This document shows, piece after piece, positions 1-11,005 of a stretch of 64,000 nt of DNA. Below the pieces are notes generated by a model. That model saw only the letters and a program-made list of their open reading frames with translations, made no database searches and was not told where the DNA came from. Source of the DNA: Bacteroidota bacterium (GTDB lineage Bacteria > Bacteroidota > Bacteroidia > Chitinophagales > LD1); contig CANJZE010000008.1 in assembly GCA_947479455.1 (NCBI GenBank), forward strand, positions 66,798-130,797. Direction: 5' to 3'. Numbering within the stretch: position 1 is the stretch's first letter; each line of letters begins with the position of its first letter. The translations under genes were made by a program, and so were the position numbers.

Positions 1-2
1 CA

Positions 3-1034
3 GCAGACGGCAGCAATGAAGACCCTTTTGACCATTTTCTGAAAATGTATGGAGGCTATTTGCCTTCATCAAATTCAAGATGGTGCACCAAAAAATTAAA
101 ACTTGAACCCTTTGAAAAATTTGTCGGTAACGACAATGTAATTTCTTATGTAGGCATTAGAGGTGATGAAGAAAGAGAAGGATATATCTCCCGCAAATCA
201 AACATCCAAAGTATTTTTCCTTTCAGGAAAAATATTTGGAGTGAGGATGTAATTGCCAAAGTTTTATCAAATAATAATTCAAACCAGGTTTTGAATTTAT
301 ACAGCAATATTGCTGCAACAAAAAATTCAAACCGATTTGAAGAACTGTTGAAGCAACCTATCTCTCAAAGTTTTACGCAGACACAGAAACTGAATTTGTT
401 GCTTGACATCAACATCAAAGAATTTAATGCGTTGGTATTTTCATTTCTTAAAGCTACCAATTACCCATTAGCTCAAGAAGAAAATTTTGAATTGATTGAC
501 AACGAAGATATTTTGGTTCGTGACGATATTTTCAGAATCCTTGAAGAAAGTGGAGTAGGAATACCTGCTTATTATAACAAAAATGAGGAATTTAGTTTTG
601 AGTTTAATGGAGAAAAGCATCTATATGGCAGAAGTCGGTCTGGTTGTTTTTTCTGCTTTTTTCAACAAAAAATTGAATGGATTTGGTTATTTGAAAATCA
701 CCTTGAGAAATTTCTTTTAGCAGAACTTTATGAAACCTCAAACGGCAACGACTCTTATTTTACATGGATGGACTCTGGCACATTAAGAGAGTTAATAGGA
801 GTGCCAGCGGATATACCGCTATGTAGAACAAAAATAAATAGCATTACAGGTTCGAAAGAAATCGAATGGATAAATGAGGAGGTCTTGAAAATACGTGACA
901 CGACTAAAACAGACAAGGTTAAGATGGAATACATTTTAAAACATAAAAGGAAAACTTCAAATCCAAGCTCGAATTTACTTATTGACATTCTAAGTGAAAC
1001 TGAAGGAGAAGGGTGTGCGGCTTGTTTTATTTAA
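3..1034 (+). CDS. PAPS-reductase-fold DNA sulfur-modification protein (DndC/SspD-like), 5' end truncated by the window edge
   Basis: The frame is open from base 3 upstream of the listed ATG at 45, so the N-terminal PP-loop lies outside the window. Motifs RWCTKKLKLEPF, YVGIRGDEE and GRSRSGCFFCF resemble the PAPS reductase/DndC family. The C-terminus carries CAAC. The gene converges on a dndA/dndD-like operon. Confidence 0.6.
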   Translation, partial: ADGSNEDPFDHFLKMYGGYLPSSNSRWCTKKLKLEPFEKFVGNDNVISYVGIRGDEEREGYISRKSNIQSIFPFRKNIWSEDVIAKVLSNNNSNQVLNLYSNIAATKNSNRFEELLKQPISQSFTQTQKLNLLLDINIKEFNALVFSFLKATNYPLAQEENFELIDNEDILVRDDIFRILEESGVGIPAYYNKNEEFSFEFNGEKHLYGRSRSGCFFCFFQQKIEWIWLFENHLEKFLLAELYETSNGNDSYFTWMDSGTLRELIGVPADIPLCRTKINSITGSKEIEWINEEVLKIRDTTKTDKVKMEYILKHKRKTSNPSSNLLIDILSETEGEGCAACFI

Positions 1035-1048
1035 AAAACCACTATGAC

Positions 1049-2077
1049 ATGAATGTAAAAGTTACCACTTGGAAGGTTTCCAAGCTCTATAAATTTAAGG
1101 ACAAGATTAATGAGCAACCAGTTTATCAGAGAGGTGAGGTATGGAGTCCCAGAAAAAGAAGCATTCTAATTGATTCAATGCTACGAGGAATTGACATTCC
1201 AAAAATCTATTTGAGAAAACTAAATTCAAATGCTCACGAATATGAAGTAGCAGATGGTCAGCAACGGTTGACAGCAATTTACAAGTTCATCGAAAATCAA
1301 TTTGCACTTTTATCAGATGAAGAAAAGGGTTTGAACTTAGATAGAATTGACGGGAAGGTTGTTGGTGGTTTGAAATATGAAAAACTTAATAAAGATTTTA
1401 AAGCAAGATTTGATAATTACGAAACAACAATTGCAATTATTGAACATGCAACTAATCAAGAGATACGAACTTTGTTCGGCAGATTACAAGAAGGTGAGCC
1501 ATTAGTGCCAGCGGAAAAGAGGAATGCAATCATTAGCACCTTAGGACATCTTATAGATAACTTTGCAATGAATCATAGCTTCTTCACAAATTCTCGAATC
1601 CCTGCGAATAGATTTAAAAGGCAAGATTACATGAGCAATGCCTTAGCTTTAATTCTCTATAAGAATGCAGAATCACTAAAGGCAGAGTTGTTACTAAAAA
1701 TGTATTTGGATAAAAGTTTAGTTGTAAGTCAAGCACAGCAAAAAAAAATAGCAATAATACTTGACAAATTAGCTGAGATAGATTCAAACAGTTCGACACG
1801 CATCTATAAAAAGTATCACTTCACTGATATGTTTTATTTTCTGTTTGAAAACTATAGTAGAATTAGTCAAATGAACCCAAAGTTAATTGCAAAAAAATTC
1901 GATAAGTTTGAGCAACAGCGGTTGGCTAATTACAACAAACCTGAATTGTTAATTGAAAACAGACAGCCAACGCCAGAAGAAAAAGATTTGTATGAATACA
2001 TAATTGCTTTTAGATATAACGGAGCAGAACCTGAAAGCATAACTACCCGACTTCGTGTTTTCACTAATTTATTTTAA
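1049..2077 (+). CDS. DUF262 (ParB-like/GmrSD N-terminal type) domain protein without a DUF1524/HNH domain
   Basis: QPVYQRGEVWS...LIDSMLRGIDIPKIYL...ADGQQRLTAIYKF is the classic DUF262 DGQQR signature. The ATG at 1049 (MNVKV) lies 15 nt after the upstream stop, and the track's GTG at 1013 is less likely. No nuclease domain follows. Confidence 0.75.
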   Translation: MNVKVTTWKVSKLYKFKDKINEQPVYQRGEVWSPRKRSILIDSMLRGIDIPKIYLRKLNSNAHEYEVADGQQRLTAIYKFIENQFALLSDEEKGLNLDRIDGKVVGGLKYEKLNKDFKARFDNYETTIAIIEHATNQEIRTLFGRLQEGEPLVPAEKRNAIISTLGHLIDNFAMNHSFFTNSRIPANRFKRQDYMSNALALILYKNAESLKAELLLKMYLDKSLVVSQAQQKKIAIILDKLAEIDSNSSTRIYKKYHFTDMFYFLFENYSRISQMNPKLIAKKFDKFEQQRLANYNKPELLIENRQPTPEEKDLYEYIIAFRYNGAEPESITTRLRVFTNLF

Positions 2078-2089
2078 TCATTTAATCAA

Positions 2090-2947
2090 ATGACAAAAGC
2101 TGATTTACCAAAAGAGTTGATTGATAACTTCAAGGATAATTTGGGTGTTTTTTTTGTTGGCGCAGGTTTATCAATTGCAGCAGGTTATCCAACTTGGGAT
2201 GGATTAATCGGTGAACTTATTGCTGAAGCTGATAAGATTTCTTGGATTCCAAAGGGAAAAATAGCTGAGTATAAGAAGTTAATTGGAGACAGTTCTAAAT
2301 TCCTTTTTCTTGCAGAGGAATTAAGAGTAGAATTAGGAAGTCACTTTACAAAATATATGGAACAGCGATTTCAATTCTCTGCTCACAACCACACAAAAAA
2401 TCATGAGTTAATTGTGACTACCGAGAGTAGTTTAGTTGTAACAATAAATTATGACGATTTAATAGAACAAGCATACAATAAGGTTTACGGAAAATATCCA
2501 AACGCTTTTATCTACTCACAAGCAAGAGAGGCAGCAAATAATTTTTGGAAGGATAGATTCTTTATTTTGAAAGCACATGGAGATGCAAAGCGAGATATTG
2601 ACACATTAATACTCTCACAAAAAGATTATCGCAAAACACTTTATCGAGAAGCTGGCTACAGAAGTTTGCTCCAATCCATCTTTACAACTAAATCAATTTT
2701 CTTTGTTGGTGTGTCACTGAATGACCCCGAGTTTAATCAGCTACTTGATTTCCTACATGACTCATATCATGGTGGAGGACCTACACACTATCTCTTAATT
2801 GAAAAGCAAAAAAGTATGGAAACAATATCGAGAAGGTATTTTGATGATTTCAATATTCAGACCATAACCTATGATAATGCAAAAGGTGATTATGCTGAAC
2901 TCACAAAGACATTAGAAGTTCTTAATTCTGAATCTCCAAGAAAATAA
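2090..2947 (+). CDS. SIR2_2-family (defence-type SIR2, putative NADase) protein
   Basis: Motifs FFVGAGLSIAAGYPTWDGLI, TINYDDLIEQA, LKAHGD and FFVGVSLNDPEF match the SIR2_2 pattern seen in ThsA/DSR-type proteins. The gene starts 13 nt after the DUF262 stop. Confidence 0.8.
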   Translation: MTKADLPKELIDNFKDNLGVFFVGAGLSIAAGYPTWDGLIGELIAEADKISWIPKGKIAEYKKLIGDSSKFLFLAEELRVELGSHFTKYMEQRFQFSAHNHTKNHELIVTTESSLVVTINYDDLIEQAYNKVYGKYPNAFIYSQAREAANNFWKDRFFILKAHGDAKRDIDTLILSQKDYRKTLYREAGYRSLLQSIFTTKSIFFVGVSLNDPEFNQLLDFLHDSYHGGGPTHYLLIEKQKSMETISRRYFDDFNIQTITYDNAKGDYAELTKTLEVLNSESPRK

Positions 2948-3025
2948 GTTTGAGAACAAAAGATAATTCAACGGTAAATCGATAAAATAGTTGTCGCTAA
3001 TATCAAAATAAACAACCCCTACTTT

Positions 3026-3658
3026 TTATTTCGCCTCGCCTTTTTTCTTCGGCTTTGCTTTACTCTTTGCTACTTTTTTCCCCACAACTTTTTTCGTCAC
3101 CTCAGGTTCAGCAGTTTCTTTCTTCATCTTAACAGTTTGAATTTTACTATCTAAAATCATTGCGAGAAAAGAAGTCGGTTGCAAGAACAGGTTGGAATTT
3201 TCTTCCAACTTTTCTTTTATCAGTGTCAGCCCTCCATTAGTGTATGATTCTACTATTTGAATCAACTCCTTCACAGCATCCTTTTCGCTCACATCCCCTT
3301 TTTCAAGAGCAAGAAAATCAAATTTTGATTTCGCCACCACCGCAGCAAACATGAACTCCTGCAAAATCGTGAAGTCGGTTCTATCAAGCCGACCTCCTTT
3401 GCTTCCCCAGTGCTGAATAGCATGACTGAAATCAACCTTCTTTGTTCCTTCAGGAATAGGTAGAAATTCATCATTGTAAAGACCGAGAAAGAAAGCATAC
3501 ATATACAGTTCATAGTTGTTACTGAAATGTTTTCCCAAGTCAACTTTTGATTTTTCAGAACCACCGAATTTTTTGGTTAAAGAATCGAACAGGGGTTCTC
3601 TAAATTCCTCACTGTATTTCGGAATTTGTGTTTTCCATTTATCGAAAAGATTTTCCAT
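3026..3658 (-). CDS. Hypothetical protein, last gene of the dndA-dndD-like operon (possible dnd system-associated protein) with a Lys-rich C-terminal tail
   Basis: A 210-aa ORF starts 2 nt after the stop of the SMC-like ATPase gene. The tail reads KKVVGKKVAKSKAKPKKKGEAK. The family name rests only on recollection of dnd-associated proteins in Bacteroidetes. Confidence 0.45.
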   Translation of the reverse strand: MENLFDKWKTQIPKYSEEFREPLFDSLTKKFGGSEKSKVDLGKHFSNNYELYMYAFFLGLYNDEFLPIPEGTKKVDFSHAIQHWGSKGGRLDRTDFTILQEFMFAAVVAKSKFDFLALEKGDVSEKDAVKELIQIVESYTNGGLTLIKEKLEENSNLFLQPTSFLAMILDSKIQTVKMKKETAEPEVTKKVVGKKVAKSKAKPKKKGEAK

Positions 3659-3660
3659 AG

Positions 3661-5814
3661 TTATAGAGTTATTACCTGTGTATTTAAAGTGCTTAAATCT
3701 TTTTTATCGAACGGTCTTTCTAAGAAAATCCAAAACGCTTTGTCTCTTTTCACATCGCTAAATTCTTTTCTCACTCCCAGTTTCTTTGTCTTTTCGTTGA
3801 TAGTCAAGAAATCTTTTATCAAAAGAATTTTCTGATTTCCGGTTTCATAAATCAGGTTAAGGAATTGCGATGTTTTTGTTTCTCCGAAAGAAGAAGTTGG
3901 AGCATCAAAAATCATCGGATAACTTTCCTCTCTAAGTTCAGTAGCCAGTTCAGAAATTGCAAACAAAATTGAAATGTGCATTGAAGTTAGAAGCGATTGA
4001 TTAGGCATGTAAAAAATTTTCCCATCTGCTTCTTGTAATTCAATTTTTACAACCACTTTTCCTGCTGACATTTTCTTGTTGAACACAATCGTTCCAGTGA
4101 ACGATTCAATATTTATTTCTTCAAAGATTTTGTTGGACTTACTTTGAAGCATATCAATAAACTCATCAAACTTTCGCTCCTTGGTGTCATTGAAAATAAT
4201 TTCAATGTCGCGCAGTATCTCTCTTGTTTTAATCAGGAAATTATTTGCCGTCTTAGTATCAATGTTATCCTTTTCAATCTTCCGTTGTTTCAATTCATCA
4301 TCAACAGATTTCAATTGACCTTTATTGTAATTCAGGTCGCGATTGAATGTAGCCAAGTCCTTTTGCCATCCAGAATAATTCTTCAACACACTTCCAAGTT
4401 TCTCAGCACCAACATTCGAACTGCCAACAATTTTTTCACGCTCTAAAATTTCCTTATCTAATTTTTGTTGAAGGTCTTCCAAATCTTCTTTTCGTTTCTT
4501 GTTAAATTCAAACAGGTCTTTAATGGTTTTTTTTACCCCCCTCAAATTGGCAAGATTGTCTTCATGGCTCACTCCCAAATTGAACATTCGTGTTAGGAAG
4601 TCATTCTTGAAAAGTATTTCGTCTTCAGCATTTTCTGCTTCCTCTGGCACTTGACTTTTCAGATATTCTTCAAGTCGTTTCATCATGAAAGTATGTGCAT
4701 GACTTCCTTTCGGAGCAGCACGGTCACATACCTTACACCACTTATCCTTAAGCATTTCTTCCATGTGTGCCTTTGATGGAACACCAGTCGGTAATGGAAT
4801 TGAGTTATTCAGGAGTTCTGCTTTCATTCTCTTCTTACCTTCCTTAATTCCTATTTCCGTATCAAACGCTTTTTCTAATTCTCTTTTCCTGCTTCCTAAC
4901 TCAGCCACCTTTTGAGAAAATTCATGATGAATTTTTTCAAAGTTCACCAGTATCCAATTTTGGTCAAACAATGCAGTTGTGTAGTTTTCATCAATTTTGT
5001 TTGAAGTAACTGTAATCTGGTCTTCTATTTTTTTGATTCGGTCATTGATAGTTTCTAATGCCTCCGCATTCGTAACATATTTTTCTGCTTCCTGAATATT
5101 GTCTTCGGTCTTTCCAATTTGTTGCTCCAACGAATTGATGAACACAGTGATTTTGTTTCTATCGCCCGACAATCTGAAAATTTCTGCTTCCAATCGCTTA
5201 TACTCTTTCTGATTTTGGCTGTCGCTTCGTGCAGCATCATCAACTGCTTTCTCCGCTTTCTCTCGAAGAAACTCGCCTTTTTCAGAATACTTTTCATAAT
5301 GCTTTGCACTTGAAAAAGAGTTAATCAGATTGAGCAACGCATCATCATTCTTGAAAATATTCAAATCAGCTTCGCCCTTAAACATTGAATATCTTCTAAT
5401 CGTTTGAGGGAAAATTCTGTCTAACAAAATATGTCCATCAACTTTACTTCGCTCACCTGCCTTGTTTTCTTCAATCCCTTCAACAGAATAATTCAAAGTT
5501 GAAAAATCATTGTCTTCAAGTTTCTTAACGATAAATGATTTTGATATTGTTTTCTTTTCATCGTATTGTTCAACAGTAATAGAAACTCGCACAGGAAATT
5601 GTTCTCCACTTTCTGCTTTGGCTAACGCCTTCGCAGAAATAAGCTTTTCTAAACCGCGCTGGTCTCCATTGAATAACCAATCAAGAGCTTCAAAGAATTT
5701 TGTTTTGCCTTCTCCATTTTCGCCCAAGATGATGTTCAATCCATCTGAGAGTTCAAATTCTTTTACCCCATTATAGCAGAGGTAATTTTCTATGCTAACT
5801 TTTTTGATAATCAT
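3661..5814 (-). CDS. DndD/SspC-like SMC/Rad50-type ATPase
   Basis: The N-terminus MIIKKVSIENYLCYNG...ILGENGEGKTKFFEALDWLF carries a Walker A (AAA_23 type). A long coiled-coil middle contains CKVCD (a CxxC, zinc-hook-like). The C-terminus carries Walker B MIFDAPTSSFG. Confidence 0.75.
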   Translation of the reverse strand: MIIKKVSIENYLCYNGVKEFELSDGLNIILGENGEGKTKFFEALDWLFNGDQRGLEKLISAKALAKAESGEQFPVRVSITVEQYDEKKTISKSFIVKKLEDNDFSTLNYSVEGIEENKAGERSKVDGHILLDRIFPQTIRRYSMFKGEADLNIFKNDDALLNLINSFSSAKHYEKYSEKGEFLREKAEKAVDDAARSDSQNQKEYKRLEAEIFRLSGDRNKITVFINSLEQQIGKTEDNIQEAEKYVTNAEALETINDRIKKIEDQITVTSNKIDENYTTALFDQNWILVNFEKIHHEFSQKVAELGSRKRELEKAFDTEIGIKEGKKRMKAELLNNSIPLPTGVPSKAHMEEMLKDKWCKVCDRAAPKGSHAHTFMMKRLEEYLKSQVPEEAENAEDEILFKNDFLTRMFNLGVSHEDNLANLRGVKKTIKDLFEFNKKRKEDLEDLQQKLDKEILEREKIVGSSNVGAEKLGSVLKNYSGWQKDLATFNRDLNYNKGQLKSVDDELKQRKIEKDNIDTKTANNFLIKTREILRDIEIIFNDTKERKFDEFIDMLQSKSNKIFEEINIESFTGTIVFNKKMSAGKVVVKIELQEADGKIFYMPNQSLLTSMHISILFAISELATELREESYPMIFDAPTSSFGETKTSQFLNLIYETGNQKILLIKDFLTINEKTKKLGVRKEFSDVKRDKAFWIFLERPFDKKDLSTLNTQVITL

Positions 5815-6044
5815 ATTGCTGTTTGATTAAGGTGTTGAAGAATTAAATTTCTTAATTCCTTATCAGGCATCACTTGCGTTGCTTCTAAATTTTCTACAAT
5901 TAATGCAATTGCTTTCACAATAGGCATATCAGATTTAATAGCCTCACGAATATTATTCGGCATATCAGCAGCTTTAATTTTGTATTTGCTTTTCAAAATA
6001 TCATGCTTCAAAAAACTTTGTAGAATATCATCTTTTCGTGCCAT
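5811..6044 (-). CDS. Small hypothetical protein (77 aa) in the DndE position
   Basis: It is translationally coupled to the downstream ATPase gene (ATGA overlap at 5811-5814). No recognisable motif was seen. Confidence 0.4.
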   Translation of the reverse strand: MARKDDILQSFLKHDILKSKYKIKAADMPNNIREAIKSDMPIVKAIALIVENLEATQVMPDKELRNLILQHLNQTAI

Positions 6045-6056
6045 AGCAATAGAGTT

Positions 6057-8294
6057 TTAATTAGAAATCAAATCATTCAAATTTAAGTTGTAGTAATCGA
6101 GAATATCTTTCAGTTCTTCGTAAGTATCAATTTTATTCATTGACAATTCTGAGAAGTCAACTACTCTTTCCAATTCTTTTTTGATAAGGTTACGCTCCAT
6201 TCCAAAATTTCCTTCACCGTCACTTATTTTCGGAACAACAACCAAATCGTGAATCACTGCATGAACTTTATCTTTATGATTTCTCAAAACCCTTCCACGC
6301 CTTTGAATAAATTGTCTTGGATTACCGGTGCTTGAACAGAATACTGCTAATTCAGAACGAGGAACATCAACCCCTTCATCCAAGCATTTCATAGAAGTTA
6401 AAACATGAACAGTTCCATTTTCAAAGTCATTTATTATTTCATTTCTGTTTTGAGTATTTGAAGTGTATTGTTTTACCAAGATTGAATCATTAGTATCTTT
6501 CACAATTCTGGTGTATTCGTTTATGAGATTCGTTTCCTCCTCATCTTCTTCATACTCATCCACCTTACTGTAATCAGGTTCTAATCCTTCGGGAACATAA
6601 ACCAAAGTGTATTTCAAATTTCCTCTACGTTTAAATTCATTTTTCATTATTTTTTTGAAAACATCCTTCTTGTTAAATGCCTTATGAATAATTCTCTTTC
6701 GCTTCAACAATAAATTCTCAACTTCCTTACACTCTTTGTAGCGACCAGTTTTAGCATCCAAATATGTTAAGAGTTGTTTTGAAATCTTGATATACTCTAC
6801 GAGTTCTTCATCAGTCAAATAAACAATGTGAGGGAAGTAAGTGTATTTACAAAGCCAGCCAACCTCCAACGCTTGCTTCATCGAATAAGAATATATGAAA
6901 GGTGCTTTATCATTGAAGAACGATTCAATAGCAGTGTTCCCCTCCAAATCATATTTCCTATTTGGTGTTGCAGACAAACCGATTCTTTTTTCTAAGTGAA
7001 TACTGGGTAACAGTTTTGAAATACTTGGCGAACCCATATTGTGAACTTCATCAGCAATCAATAATGTTTCCTTCGGCAACAACTTGAAATGACTTTGAAA
7101 TTTTGGTCTTGTCAGCGAAGCATAAGTTACAATAACAATAAAGTTTGTGTTCGTCAACTTCGTTGCCGTATTGAAGAAAGCAAGATTATCACTCCAATTT
7201 TCCTTTGAACTAACTGTAATGACATTACTAAAATTGAATTTAGCACATTCCTTTTTCCACTGCTCCAACAACGCTGTTGTTGGCACTGTAATAATTGCTT
7301 TGTAGGTATTTGTTTCTCTATAAAGATTCAGCAAACAATTAAGAGAAGTAATAGTTTTCCCTGTTCCAGTTGCCATTGCAAAAACTCCTTTGTAGCCATT
7401 GCCAACCCAAGCATCATAAGCAGCAATTTGATATTCTCTCGCTCCCTCAGGATATGGGAATCTTGGTTCTCTCTGAATTTCTTCAATGTGGGTAATCGCT
7501 TTCTCAAAACTTTTTCTCACTCCTTTGTTTTCTAACACCCGACTTTTTCTCTCAACCAATTCCTTTTCTTTTATCAACAACTCATTAAGTGAAGCGTTTC
7601 CAAATTCCTTTTTGATTGCTATCGAAACATCTTCAACCTCCAAATAATCTACAATGTCTGACTTGCCAGAAAAAACCATTTCGAAAAAACTGTTCTGTCT
7701 GTTTATCATTTTACTTGAACGGCTGTTTTCCCAACTAAGAAATCCGTCTAACTCTTCCAAATTTTCAAGTAACCCAAATGCAGTAAAATTGCAAGATGCT
7801 TTAAAGCCAACCGTATCAACTCCGTCCGAAAATGCTCCTGACTTGTAGTGTGCGATTCCTTTCCCTGTTTTCGGTTTGATGATTTTGATTTGAATTTTTT
7901 CATTTGCAATCAACCATGCAAGGCAATCAAAAAAATGTTTGCCGTAATCATTAAGCGTTCTTTTCAATTGCTTAATGTCTGTCAAGTCAATTGCAATATT
8001 TTCTATATCACCTTCTCTTCCTGCTTTGATTGCATCTCTATCTTCTTGCGACAAAACATTATTTACAACCATTCGCATTGTGCCTCCACTGTAAAGAAAA
8101 CTTGCAAAGCCAAGTGAGAGGACATTGATAGCTGCTGAACTAAAATAGCCAAGCAGCAAATCAAATTTTTTGCTGTTACATAAGCCGTCCATGTAAAATT
8201 GAATAGGTTCGCTTTCACTACCCGTTCTATATGACCTGTCTTCTGACCAATTGACTTGCTTAAGCATAGTTTGTTGTCGACTGTAATGATTCAC
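6057..8294 (-). CDS. PLD-like nuclease domain + SF2 (ResIII/DEAH) helicase, resembling a DNA phosphorothioation system restriction enzyme
   Basis: The N-terminal region has a PLD-like HxK (GIAHYKSGAFSDG). Helicase motifs are FAMATGTGKT, IADEVHN, LSATP and QRRGRVLR. The gene overlaps the upstream cysteine desulfurase stop (alternative start MLKQ at 8267). Confidence 0.75.
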   Translation of the reverse strand: MNHYSRQQTMLKQVNWSEDRSYRTGSESEPIQFYMDGLCNSKKFDLLLGYFSSAAINVLSLGFASFLYSGGTMRMVVNNVLSQEDRDAIKAGREGDIENIAIDLTDIKQLKRTLNDYGKHFFDCLAWLIANEKIQIKIIKPKTGKGIAHYKSGAFSDGVDTVGFKASCNFTAFGLLENLEELDGFLSWENSRSSKMINRQNSFFEMVFSGKSDIVDYLEVEDVSIAIKKEFGNASLNELLIKEKELVERKSRVLENKGVRKSFEKAITHIEEIQREPRFPYPEGAREYQIAAYDAWVGNGYKGVFAMATGTGKTITSLNCLLNLYRETNTYKAIITVPTTALLEQWKKECAKFNFSNVITVSSKENWSDNLAFFNTATKLTNTNFIVIVTYASLTRPKFQSHFKLLPKETLLIADEVHNMGSPSISKLLPSIHLEKRIGLSATPNRKYDLEGNTAIESFFNDKAPFIYSYSMKQALEVGWLCKYTYFPHIVYLTDEELVEYIKISKQLLTYLDAKTGRYKECKEVENLLLKRKRIIHKAFNKKDVFKKIMKNEFKRRGNLKYTLVYVPEGLEPDYSKVDEYEEDEEETNLINEYTRIVKDTNDSILVKQYTSNTQNRNEIINDFENGTVHVLTSMKCLDEGVDVPRSELAVFCSSTGNPRQFIQRRGRVLRNHKDKVHAVIHDLVVVPKISDGEGNFGMERNLIKKELERVVDFSELSMNKIDTYEELKDILDYYNLNLNDLISN

Positions 8295-9411
8295 TAAATA
8301 TTTTTAAAACTTCTTGCACTTCGCTTTCAGTATTAAATCTTCCCAACGAAAACCTAATTGAAGAAAACGCATCATCATCAGACAAAGCCATTGCTTTCAA
8401 AACATGAGAGGGCTCAATAATTGCTGAAGTGCAAGCTGAACCATTTGACACTGCAACATTTTTCATTTTCGCAATTAGCACATTTGCGTCTATACCAGGG
8501 AAACAAATATTGGTGACATTATACATTCTGTCTTGCGTTGAACCATTTACAAATGCCCTATGCAATTTTAGCAACTCACTTTCAAGTTCATCTCTGAGAA
8601 ATAAAATTCTATTTTTATCGTTTCCCATTTCTGCCTTTGCAATCTCACACGCTTTACCCATAGCGACAATTGCAGGAACGTTCAATGTCCCGCTTCGTAA
8701 TCCATTTTCATGTCCACCTCCATGTTGCAAAGCATCCAACTTGATTTTATTTTTCTTCAGCCCTCTTACATACAAAGCTCCAAGCCCTTTTGCGCCATAA
8801 AATTTATGAGCAGAAAAAGTCATTAGGTCAACACCCAATTCAGCTACATCTGTCGCAATTTTCCCAACTGCTTGCGTTGCATCGCTCATCAAAATCGCAC
8901 CTGCATTATGAGTAATATTTGCAATCTCTTTAACCGGTTGTAAAACACCTGTTTCATTATTTGCAAGCATCACACATACAAGAATTGAGTCGCTTCGCAA
9001 TTCGGTCTTCAAATTTTCCAAATTAATCAATCCGTCATTTTTCACAGGAAGATAACTCACATCAAAACCGATTGTTTCGAGATATTTACATGTATCGAGA
9101 ACGGCTTTATGTTCAGTCTCAACAGTAATAATATGTTTGCCTCTACTCTGATTTGCTAAAGCAAATCCTTTCAAAGCAAGATTGATACTTTCAGTAGCCC
9201 CAGAAGTGAAAATGATTTCAGTTGCATCGGCAGAAATTAAATCAGCAATTGTTTCCCGGGATTGGTCAACAGCTTTGGCACTGTTTAACCCAAATTGATG
9301 AATGCTGGAGGAGTTACCATATTGTTTTTCAAAATACGGTAACATCGCATCAAGAACTCTTGAATCTATTTCAGTAGTTGCATTATTATCAAGATAGATA
9401 ATTTCTTTCAT
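8260..9411 (-). CDS. Cysteine desulfurase (NifS/IscS class V aminotransferase; DndA/SspA-like)
   Basis: Motifs IYLDNNATT, FTSGATESINLA, SAHKFYGAKGLGALYV (PLP lysine) and SNGSACTS (catalytic Cys loop). It is the first gene of the minus-strand PT operon. Confidence 0.9.
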   Translation of the reverse strand: MKEIIYLDNNATTEIDSRVLDAMLPYFEKQYGNSSSIHQFGLNSAKAVDQSRETIADLISADATEIIFTSGATESINLALKGFALANQSRGKHIITVETEHKAVLDTCKYLETIGFDVSYLPVKNDGLINLENLKTELRSDSILVCVMLANNETGVLQPVKEIANITHNAGAILMSDATQAVGKIATDVAELGVDLMTFSAHKFYGAKGLGALYVRGLKKNKIKLDALQHGGGHENGLRSGTLNVPAIVAMGKACEIAKAEMGNDKNRILFLRDELESELLKLHRAFVNGSTQDRMYNVTNICFPGIDANVLIAKMKNVAVSNGSACTSAIIEPSHVLKAMALSDDDAFSSIRFSLGRFNTESEVQEVLKIFSESLQSTTNYA

Positions 9412-9514: not shown

Positions 9515-11005
9515 ATGAGTTCTAATAATCTTCACATTCTTTCCAAATCCACTTTCGTCCGTGGCTGTATCTGCAAGAAAAGTCTCTGGCTGTCCAAACA
9601 CAGAAGAGATTTAATTCCGCCCACCCCCGCAGGTCAACAATTTATCTTTGACCAAGGCCACGAGGTCGGCAAACTGGCACGGCAGCTATTTCCTGGTGGT
9701 GTTGACGCAAGTTCTGCTACCCCGTTCGATTACCAACCATCTTTAGAACTTACCCAAAAACTTATTGCCGAAGACAGGCATGTAATTTACGAAGCAGCAT
9801 TTCAACATGATGGTGTGTTAGCGGCACTTGATATTTTGGTAAAGAAAGAAGATGGATGGCATGCGTTCGAGGTGAAATCATCCACGAAGGTTGCTGACAT
9901 AAATGTTACTGATGCAGCACTTCAATATTGGGTGATGCAAAATTCCGGTTTGAAATTGCAGGACATCTCAATCATCCACATCAATAACGAGTATGAAAGA
10001 ACCGGTGAAATTGAACCCGAAAAATTATTCAAAACCGAATCAATTCTTTATTTGGTTCTTGCTTTACAAGATGAAATTACGGAGCAAGTAAAAGAATTAA
10101 AGAGGGTTGCTATGGATAAAAGCTGTCCGGTTGTTCCTAACGGAAAGCAATGCACCACACCTTGGGCTTGTTCTTTCAAAGACCATTGCTGGAACGAATC
10201 GAAGGTGCCGGATGAATCTATTCTTGATTTCGATTTATACAGAAAGGAAGAACGCTTCAAATTGTTTCATTCCGGCATAAAGCAGATTGCAGATGTTCCT
10301 AATTGGGAGCTGTTGAAAGTTCCATACAATTATGTAGTTGAAGCACACCGGAATAAAGGCATTTATGTAGATGACATTCAACTTAAAAAATTCATGGAAG
10401 GCATAACCTATCCAATCTACTTCATGGATTTTGAAACTGTGCGCTTTGCGGTTCCTAAATTTAATAACTCCTATCCATACGAGCAGATACCGAATCAGTA
10501 TTCAATTCATGTTTTAGATAATGAAAATGCGGAACCGGTTCATCTCTCTTATCTGGCTGACCCTGCTAAAGAGTTCAGAATGGATTTTACAGAAACACTT
10601 CTCAAAGATTTAGGCAACAACGGAACTATTCTTGTTTACAATGTCTCCTTCGAGCGTTCAAGATTAAAAATGCTGGCATTTCTGTTTCCGCAATATGAAT
10701 CGCAAATAAACTCTGTAATAGAACGATTGTTAGACTTGGCATTCCCGTTCCAAAAAAAGTTTTTTTACGACCACAAATTTTCCTGCTCATATTCCATAAA
10801 AGATGTATTGCCGGTGCTTGCTCCTGATTTGAGTTACAAAAATCTGACCGTTAACAACGGTGACGATGCCAGCATAATATTTATGAAAATGATGGAAGAG
10901 CCTGATAAAGACTGGTCAGCCGAAAGAAAAAACCTACTCGAATACTGCGGATTGGATACTTGGGCGATGGTTCGGATTTTCCGGTATCTGAATACGATTG
11001 TATGA
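9515..11005 (+). CDS. DUF2779-type protein with an N-terminal Cas4/RecB-like nuclease region
   Basis: The 496-aa product has an N-terminus SKSTFVRGCICKKSLWL, a Cys cluster CPVVPNGKQCTTPWACSFKDHCW and a C-terminal FMDFETV... region, all typical of DUF2779 proteins. Confidence 0.6.
   Translation: MSSNNLHILSKSTFVRGCICKKSLWLSKHRRDLIPPTPAGQQFIFDQGHEVGKLARQLFPGGVDASSATPFDYQPSLELTQKLIAEDRHVIYEAAFQHDGVLAALDILVKKEDGWHAFEVKSSTKVADINVTDAALQYWVMQNSGLKLQDISIIHINNEYERTGEIEPEKLFKTESILYLVLALQDEITEQVKELKRVAMDKSCPVVPNGKQCTTPWACSFKDHCWNESKVPDESILDFDLYRKEERFKLFHSGIKQIADVPNWELLKVPYNYVVEAHRNKGIYVDDIQLKKFMEGITYPIYFMDFETVRFAVPKFNNSYPYEQIPNQYSIHVLDNENAEPVHLSYLADPAKEFRMDFTETLLKDLGNNGTILVYNVSFERSRLKMLAFLFPQYESQINSVIERLLDLAFPFQKKFFYDHKFSCSYSIKDVLPVLAPDLSYKNLTVNNGDDASIIFMKMMEEPDKDWSAERKNLLEYCGLDTWAMVRIFRYLNTIV

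Follow-up and report, generated by a model that had tools for sequence, protein, structure and literature searches.

Many sspBCD genes, which encode writers of phosphorothioate (PT) marks on DNA, are orphans. In ~84% of 2,678 surveyed sspBCD clusters, neither SspE nor SspFGH is found nearby (PMC8092258). A locus in a Bacteroidota bacterium offers two conserved candidate partners side by side. It lies at the left end of the 64,000-nucleotide (nt) stretch analyzed here (the window; contig 8 positions 66798-130797 of a 3.76-Mb draft genome) and continues leftward into 14.8 kb that were added as map L002, in which a position minus 14798 gives the window position. A first-pass annotation, made from the letters of the window alone, had described a phosphorothioation-type modification/restriction locus with a non-canonical gene set. 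The general type was judged right, the functions being predicted from the genes, and three modules account for the unusual gene set: SspABCD, PbeABCD, and a pair encoding a DUF262 protein and a SIR2 protein. These gene sets recur in many unrelated genomes, and the locus is therefore not a product of chance. We hold this reading of the gene content with high confidence.

The first module is the writer. Extension of the contig to the left, as the first-pass annotation had proposed, recovered sspB and sspC directly upstream of sspD. The sspB gene (L002 10508-11395, plus strand) matches Pfam DUF4007 (2.6e-81) and the PADLOC SspB model (8e-115). The adjoining sspC gene (L002 11373-14606, plus strand), wholly left of the window, encodes a large BrxC/Orc-like ATPase of 1077 amino acids (aa) that matches PADLOC SspC over its full length (E=0, 1535 bits). 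The sspD gene is cut at the window edge, so that only its 3' part (1-1034, open reading frame (ORF) 3-1034, plus strand) is visible there; the full gene (G000:C8:66602-67831 = L002 14603-15832, plus strand) starts 195 nt left of the edge. Its 409-aa product is a PP-loop/PAPS-reductase-fold ATP pyrophosphatase that matches PADLOC SspD (6e-83) and Pfam PAPS_reduct and carries the SGGKDS PP-loop, GCFFCF, and a C-terminal CAAC. The three genes overlap or abut, sspC and sspD by a 4-nt overlap. As predicted from these matches, the PT writer is Ssp-type and complete, with its ATPase (SspC) outside the window. In characterized Ssp systems, the mark is single-stranded, 5'-CpsCA-3'. IscS or SspA together with SspBCD is sufficient for PT in E. 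coli; the PT written is single-stranded, and one writer can serve several effectors (PMC8092258).

The fourth component of the writer is encoded apart from sspBCD. A 383-aa sspA/dndA-type cysteine desulfurase of the NifS/IscS family (8260-9411, minus strand) is the first gene of the minus-strand operon. It matches Pfam Aminotran_5 (1.7e-82) and scores almost equally against PADLOC SspA (530 bits) and DndA (528 bits). Its scores fall under the NCBIfam cut-offs (406 vs 480 for DndA, 467 vs 548 for IscS), so that its placement in the SspA subfamily is tentative. A second NifS/IscS-like gene, 35% identical to the island desulfurase, lies at G000:C32:2898-4007.

Which genes could act on the marks? 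Two plus-strand genes, 1049-2077 and 2090-2947, lie between sspD and the minus-strand chain and had been overlooked. Consequently, although the PAPS-reductase-fold gene is truncated at its 5' end as first described, it does not converge on that chain; the SIR2 gene does. Intergenic spaces on the plus strand are short, with 14 nt from sspD to the DUF262 gene and 12 nt from the DUF262 gene to the SIR2 gene. The two convergent operons are separated by 78 nt (2948-3025), in which no terminator-like hairpin was found and folding was no better than that of shuffled sequences.

The first of the two genes (1049-2077, plus strand) encodes a 342-aa DUF262/ParB-like NTPase-fold protein, a candidate sensor of PT status, whereas the first-pass annotation had reported no recognizable DUF262 gene. 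The protein matches Pfam GmrSD_N (4e-20) and, over its full length, PADLOC NsnA (2.5e-33); searches with the DUF1524/GmrSD_C (Pfam) and PADLOC SspE models gave no match. QPxYQRGxVW and ADGQQR are invariant across 59 DUF262 homologues, and the window copy carries YQRGEVW and DGQQR. An AlphaFold2 (AF2) model (predicted local distance difference test score, pLDDT, 93) comprises a ParB/Srx-type N-terminal domain followed by an all-helical domain. Foldseek searches with this model place ParB CTPases on top (probability 1.0), with SspE and BrxU lower. A ParB-DUF262 domain joined to a helical DNA-binding domain is the architecture of NsnA, of DndB, and of the N-terminal and middle parts of GmrSD and SspE (PMC12065111). 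The putative link to SspE rests on Pfam, the motifs, and a weak fold match.

The closest characterized relative of this arrangement is SspABCD-SspE of Vibrio cyclitrophicus FF75, E. coli 3234/A, and Streptomyces (Xiong 2020; Gao 2022, PMC9646914). Both have the same writer genes in the same sspBCD order, and both encode, directly after sspD, a DUF262 protein that combines the NTPase motif DGQQR with a helical domain of the DNA-binding type. In SspE, the DUF262 domain recognizes PT, GTP hydrolysis is stimulated, and the fused nickase is switched on (PMC9646914). The locus in the window differs from that system in several ways. Its DUF262 protein, at 342 aa, has no DUF1524 nickase and no PADLOC SspE match, and is followed by a separate SIR2 protein; moreover, sspA heads the pbe operon, apart from sspBCD, and the genome has no true SspE. 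SspE itself totals ~750 aa and ends in a C-terminal DUF1524 (HNH-type) nicking domain. A search for SspE elsewhere in the genome yielded a sole match, a 49-bit N-terminal DUF262 on contig 17, which was rejected; the same model finds such matches in 5/14 control genomes. The contig 17 match (G000:C17:38163-38507) belongs to a 652-aa ORF with an N-terminal DUF262 that is GmrSD-like, not SspE. Resemblance to NsnA of Menshen (PMC12065111) extends to the full-length PADLOC match and to an architecture in which a ParB-DUF262 domain is joined to a helical DNA-binding domain but not to a nuclease. In contrast to Menshen, neither the NsnB ABC ATPase nor NsnC is adjacent here; sspD precedes the DUF262 gene and SIR2 follows it.

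The second gene (2090-2947, plus strand) encodes a stand-alone 285-aa SIR2_2 protein, a candidate NAD+-consuming effector. It matches Pfam SIR2_2 (5.5e-26) and PADLOC ThsA (7.7e-27), and phmmer searches of PDB sequences relate it to ThsA (6lhx), DSR2 (8k98), and KomC (8zsf). N120 and H163 align with the catalytic Asn and His of these three proteins, and GAGxS, N120-Y-D, and H163-G-D are invariant in 18/18 SIR2 orthologues. With its NADase residues intact, the protein is probably an NADase. It shares the SIR2_2 domain, the GAGxS loop, and the catalytic Asn and His with ThsA (Thoeris), DSR1/DSR2, and KomC (Kongming), and resembles KomC as a short stand-alone SIR2 needing a partner for control. 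In contrast to these defense proteins, it has no fused SLOG, HEAT-repeat, or other sensor; its partner is a DUF262 NTPase, and its context is a PT operon.

The association of this pair with the writer is conserved. A scan of the DUF262 alignment against one genome per species yielded full-length relatives (34-75% identity) in 18 other loci, of which L006 and L007 have identical maps. In 18/18 of these loci, sspB-sspC-sspD come first and the DUF262-SIR2 pair follows on the same strand, with gaps usually of tens of bases. The loci span Flavobacteriaceae, Marinilabiliales, Sphingobacteriales, Cytophagales, a Planctomycete (Aquisphaera), and an Acidobacterium, and one comes from a metagenome-assembled genome (MAG) labelled Methylophilus. 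Around more distant DUF262 proteins, both SIR2 and ssp genes are missing. SspC-type genes (at least 35% identity) were found in about 9-10 of 400 sampled genomes of the window's phylum (~2.5%), and in the same sample this DUF262 family was found, besides the window's genome, only in G363, where it is distant at 34% identity. The pair is rare, yet in the loci found it is always attached to Ssp. Across the loci, identity of DUF262 to the window copy correlates with that of SIR2 at r=0.89, with those of SspB and SspC at 0.69 each, and with that of SspD at 0.26. Because DUF262 identity tracks SIR2 far better than SspD, the data fit a putative two-gene cassette that moves as a unit. All context samples used here are small (18, 5, and 8 loci).

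G363 was considered as a counter-example and set aside: its 34%-identical stand-alone DUF262 protein has no SIR2 and no ssp gene in its neighborhood and is thus a member of another subfamily. Beside this 416-aa protein, G363 has a 569-aa ORF (L114 10954-12663) with an N-terminal reverse-transcriptase-looking motif, IPKRNGKER, which may be another DUF262 pairing.

Could the DUF262 protein be a regulator rather than a sensor? It might be the Ssp counterpart of DndB, an NTP-dependent regulator that limits PT level or ssp transcription, in which case SIR2 would be a separately triggered effector or would ADP-ribosylate protein or DNA. DndB belongs to the ParB/DUF262 superfamily, is of similar size, and regulates dnd, and SspE has been equated with DndB (PMC10853773); the DUF262 protein also has no nuclease domain. 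However, it matches neither the Pfam DndB, NCBIfam DndB, nor DGQHR models at E<=0.01, whereas the genuine DndB-like protein of L014 does match PF14072. Separate DndB-like genes occur in some of the same loci (L014, L009). Furthermore, SIR2 is immediately downstream of DUF262 in all 18 loci and the two co-vary, and the sister DUF262-only proteins that occupy this slot have a kinase as their partner. We therefore consider a DndB-like role quite improbable.

The slot directly after sspD varies among genomes. It may hold DUF262 and SIR2, another DUF262-only subfamily with a Ser/Thr kinase, or a ~225-aa protein with a protein resembling nucleoside deoxyribosyltransferase (NDT). Some loci carry extra modules: a true SspE (L010, L019), a trio of DndB-like protein, 174-aa protein, and GHKL ATPase, or an Mrr-type nuclease. 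The SspE proteins of L010 and L019 carry both DUF262 and DUF1524 domains and co-occur with the DUF262-SIR2 pair. Because the slot holds different enzymes in different genomes (SIR2, kinase, NDT-like enzyme, GHKL ATPase), the arrangement points to a plug-in design from which more effectors could be mined.

These alternative occupants have features of their own. The DUF262-only subfamily with a eukaryotic-type Ser/Thr kinase follows sspD in L011 (7816-9967), L101 (10555-12659), and L105 (10570-12641); only its N-terminal ~64 residues are shared with the window protein, at 41% identity, and in L011 it sits beside the DUF262-SIR2 pair. The ~225-aa protein and a ~128-aa Nuc_deoxyri_tr2 protein are encoded directly after sspD in L102 (10542-11593), L103 (10692-11781), and L104 (4323-5412), and also in L101 (12693-13762) and L006 (8895-9921). 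This nucleoside deoxyribosyltransferase-like pair is a candidate recurrent Ssp partner. An ~800-aa protein with a weak HATPase_c_3 (GHKL) match converges on the Ssp operon in many loci (for example, L014 12057-16226, L009 11909-13671, and L108 2068-6297), lies just after SIR2 in L005, L006, L013, L015, L016, and L018, and in some cases has a DndB-like protein and a ~175-aa protein beside it.

The second candidate partner is the minus-strand cassette. As first described, a chain of five tightly packed ORFs runs 9411->3026, and all motifs cited for the region (AHYKSG, ATGTGKT, DEVH, SATP, QRRGRVLR, GENGEGKT, CKVCD, MIFDAP, GCFFCF) are present; each is conserved in homologues from 7 other loci. 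The genes after sspA reproduce the order and size pattern that define PbeABCD, in which PbeA is an HKD endonuclease with an SF2 helicase, PbeB is small and rapidly evolving, PbeC is a "CxC" ABC ATPase with a Zn hook, and PbeD is a DndE cognate (PMC10853773). The pbeA gene (6057-8294, minus strand) encodes an HKD (PLD-family) nuclease fused to an SF2 helicase, of 745 aa with a GTG start or 736 aa with the ATG at 8267; accordingly, sspA and pbeA either overlap or are 2 nt apart. Downstream, 12 nt separate pbeA from pbeB, pbeB and pbeC overlap by 4 nt, and 2 nt separate pbeC from pbeD.

The four proteins are recognizable to different degrees. PbeA matches its PADLOC model over the full length (PDLC02706, E=0, 1099 bits) and NCBIfam TIGR04095 dnd_restrict_1 ("DNA phosphorothioation system restriction enzyme") at 406 bits, under the cut-off of 600; HxK...D and helicase motifs I, II, III, and VI are conserved in 7 other loci. 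The view of this PLD-helicase as a restriction-type component sharing an operon with the cysteine desulfurase is borne out. PbeB (77 aa, 5811-6044, minus strand) is assigned by position and size only and has no family match in Pfam, NCBIfam, or PADLOC; in each of the 8 loci compared, an ORF of 69-77 aa (22-61% identity) separates pbeA from pbeC. PbeC (717 aa, 3661-5814, minus strand) is an ABC/SMC-like ATPase whose top PADLOC match is PbeC (7.8e-16), with Pfam matches to AAA_23, AAA_15, and SMC_N. Its Walker A GENGEGKT (residue 31), mid-protein CxxC hook (CKVCD, residue 360 of 717), and Walker B/D-loop IFDAPTSSFG (~residue 634) are conserved in 7 other loci. Flanked by pbeB and pbeD, it has no NCBIfam DndD match at E<=0.01.

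The 210-aa protein in the pbeD position (3026-3658, minus strand) consists of a ~175-aa conserved core and a disordered tail rich in Lys; its gene closes the A-B-C-D order in every related locus. No DndE had been recognized in the first analysis, but the protein occupies the position of PbeD, the DndE cognate, and weakly matches TIGR04062 dnd_assoc_4 (as do 25/45 members of the protein family, best 3e-5). In Foldseek, its AF2 model (pLDDT 76) aligns with DndE (4lrv/5wtu) at template modelling (TM) scores of just 0.40-0.43 (E about 4-6), which is not significant. For both PbeC and PbeD, the putative assignment draws mainly on synteny and motifs. Conservation of the PbeD-position protein is unusually high, with 62-85% identity in the best 120 database matches (P0121-P0240), above PbeA (44-71%) and PbeC (24-66%) in the same loci. 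Several of its homologues are annotated with PF27807, an accession missing from the local Pfam copy.

The initial model had taken the desulfurase, the SMC/Rad50-like ATPase (as DndD/SspC), and the small proteins (as DndE) for the modification machinery, with the PLD-helicase embedded in it. PbeC and PbeD are indeed sister and cognate families of DndD and DndE (PMC10853773), and the desulfurase is encoded in the minus-strand operon. However, the ATPase has PbeC as its best match, the real SspC being encoded left of the window, and a complete sspBCD writer lies upstream, where IscS and SspBCD would suffice for PT (PMC8092258). Ssp-Pbe loci L102, L104, and L105 have no desulfurase in the operon. 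In Haloterrigena, moreover, dndCDEA alone gave PT-modified SNJ1 virus, whereas defense needed pbeB, pbeC, and pbeD absolutely and pbeA partly (PMC6459918). A modification role for the minus-strand genes as a whole is very improbable.

DndCDEA-PbeABCD of Haloterrigena jeotgali A29 (PMC6459918), a CxC ABC-ATPase/DndE-anchored system (PMC10853773), is the known counterpart of this cassette. The two share the same four-gene order and sizes and a cysteine desulfurase immediately upstream of pbeA (dndA-pbeA in the archaeon), an arrangement likewise found in L003, L004, L101, and L103. In the archaeal PbeABCD system, the PT writer is needed for self-protection and defense (PMC6459918). Here, Pbe is linked to SspBCD rather than DndCDE, and the expected mark is Ssp-type single-stranded PT; PbeA scores under the TIGR04095 cut-off, and PbeD has 210 aa and a Lys-rich tail. 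None of the genes annotated here is dndC, dndD, or dndE, for which the rest of the genome was not searched.

Linkage of this Pbe lineage to Ssp is also conserved. Five contexts of close PbeD homologues (L101-L105), chosen on contig extent alone, all have sspBCD beside pbeABCD (5/5), four convergent and one, L104, as a co-directional single array in which Pbe and sspCD are compactly placed on the same strand. SspA-PbeA(B)CD adjoins the same ssp operon as the DUF262-SIR2 pair in L003, L004, and L017. With the window included, Ssp genes accompany this Pbe lineage in 9/9 loci examined. Conversely, Pbe is next to sspBCD in 2/8 SspC-positive genomes randomly drawn from the phylum sample. The arrangement as two convergent operons, correctly seen in the window, is not conserved, as the modules are co-directional in L003, L004, and L104. 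Split sspA, pbeA, and/or pbeC frames were seen in L003 (8746-14068, a Flavobacteriaceae MAG) and L004 (16961-19149, Geofilum rubicundum), and may be assembly frameshifts or decaying copies.

The surroundings point to mobility. Left of sspB (L002 2548-4438) are a tRNA-Met, an HTH/excisionase-like gene, and a tyrosine integrase (Arm-DNA-bind_5 and Phage_int_SAM_5), which probably mark the left end of an island; just upstream of sspB (L002 6718-10001) are a C5 cytosine DNA methyltransferase and a serine resolvase. The module has a GC content of 0.35 vs 0.40 for the rest of the window. PbeA was absent from all 40 genomes searched (24 of the same genus and 16 of the same order), and no copy of the tRNA-Met 3' end, expected at the island's right end, was found in the window. 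By these sequence criteria, the module is a horizontally acquired integrase island at tRNA-Met.

How might the three modules work together? We favor, as moderately probable, a mobile PT-based defense island in which one writer serves two effector arms. SspB, SspC, and SspD, with sulfur mobilized by SspA, would mark the DNA of the host itself with PT. In arm 1, which shares an operon with sspBCD, the nuclease-less DUF262/ParB-like NTPase would read PT status on DNA and control the neighboring SIR2 protein, in place of the fused DUF1524 nickase of SspE; we infer that the signal would run in this direction, from DUF262 to SIR2. Depletion of NAD+ by the activated SIR2 would halt growth of the infected cell. 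In arm 2, PbeABCD, co-transcribed with sspA, PbeC and PbeD would scan DNA, PbeA (HKD nuclease and SF2 translocase) would act on unmarked DNA, and PbeB would be a small regulatory or adaptor subunit, these roles being taken from PMC10853773 and PMC6459918. Ssp marks would be used by PbeABCD for discrimination between self and non-self, and the position of sspA at the head of the pbe operon would tie the sulfur supply of marking to expression of the nuclease arm. Because a Ser/Thr kinase accompanies the sister DUF262-only proteins found at this position, arm 1 may follow a pattern of a sensor with interchangeable effectors. A more specific proposal, that PT marks are a shared input, that the DUF262 family signals to interchangeable enzymes (SIR2, kinase), and that the Pbe lineage reads single-stranded marks, is tentative and rather doubtful.

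Several observations weigh against the two-arm reading. Among the other SspC-positive genomes of the phylum sample (about 9-14 by threshold), none has this DUF262 family, and none of 8 mapped SspC-positive neighborhoods has the DUF262-SIR2 pair, which is a minority partner of Ssp. The global structural match of the DUF262 model to SspE is poor (TM about 0.26), and a profile of the DUF262 family finds nothing among PDB sequences at E<=1, SspE included. No DUF262-SIR2 fusion was found among the best 150 SIR2 representatives; the two proteins of that set with a C-terminal SIR2 have, in place of DUF262, a second SIR2 or a metallophosphatase. In arm 2, the PbeC model is matched at a low score (56 bits, close to that of LmuB), and Foldseek returned nothing significant for the 210-aa protein, which leaves a DndE-like fold unconfirmed for PbeD. 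Tests of PbeABCD have involved only double-stranded PT of the Dnd type (PMC6459918), and CxC/Pbe systems are often PT-independent according to Rakesh et al. (PMC10853773).

Some of these points would also fit a simpler view, in which the three modules are functionally independent neighbors in a defense island. PbeABCD and DUF262-SIR2 would then not read PT; Ssp would mark DNA for an unknown or lost partner or serve a non-defense role, and the arms could be, for example, abortive infection systems triggered by phage factors. CxC/Pbe systems without any PT genes exist, their PT dependence has been questioned (PMC10853773), and 165/553 PbeAC have no nearby modification gene (PMC6459918). Other, unrelated defense genes lie nearby in the window, and the variable cassettes after sspD resemble the traffic of an island hot spot. 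Against independence, DUF262-SIR2 adjoins sspBCD in the same order and on the same strand throughout its 18 loci despite the low base rate of SspC, the Pbe lineage is found beside ssp in every locus examined, reaching in L104 a shared compact array, and sspA is translationally coupled to pbeA. Independence of the modules consequently appears unlikely, and the model of one writer with two arms remains the preferred reading.

Restriction branches in the PT literature comprise dndFGH/sspFGH, sspE, and pbeABCD (with dnd). A literature search, from which subscription-only papers were outside, gave no description of Ssp with Pbe, of Ssp with DUF262 and SIR2, or of both together. The individual modules are known or partly known, and we could not find their combinations in the searchable literature. 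SspABCD-SspFGH stacked with SspE (PMC8092258) follows the same logic, one Ssp writer serving more than one effector module. In that case, however, the effector modules are others, and SspF, SspG, and SspH are not present here. If the model is true, arm 1 turns a mark on the DNA backbone into NAD+ depletion, an abortive-infection output with no DNA cutting, and arm 2 extends PbeABCD from Dnd-type to Ssp-type marks. Effectors would thereby be supplied for part of the large majority of sspBCD clusters that lack a known restriction partner.

One further neighbor was considered. A DUF2779 (UU173 family)/Cas4/RecB-like protein of 496 aa (9515-11005, plus strand) is absent from all related Ssp loci and was rejected as a member of the system; its gene is divergent from sspA.

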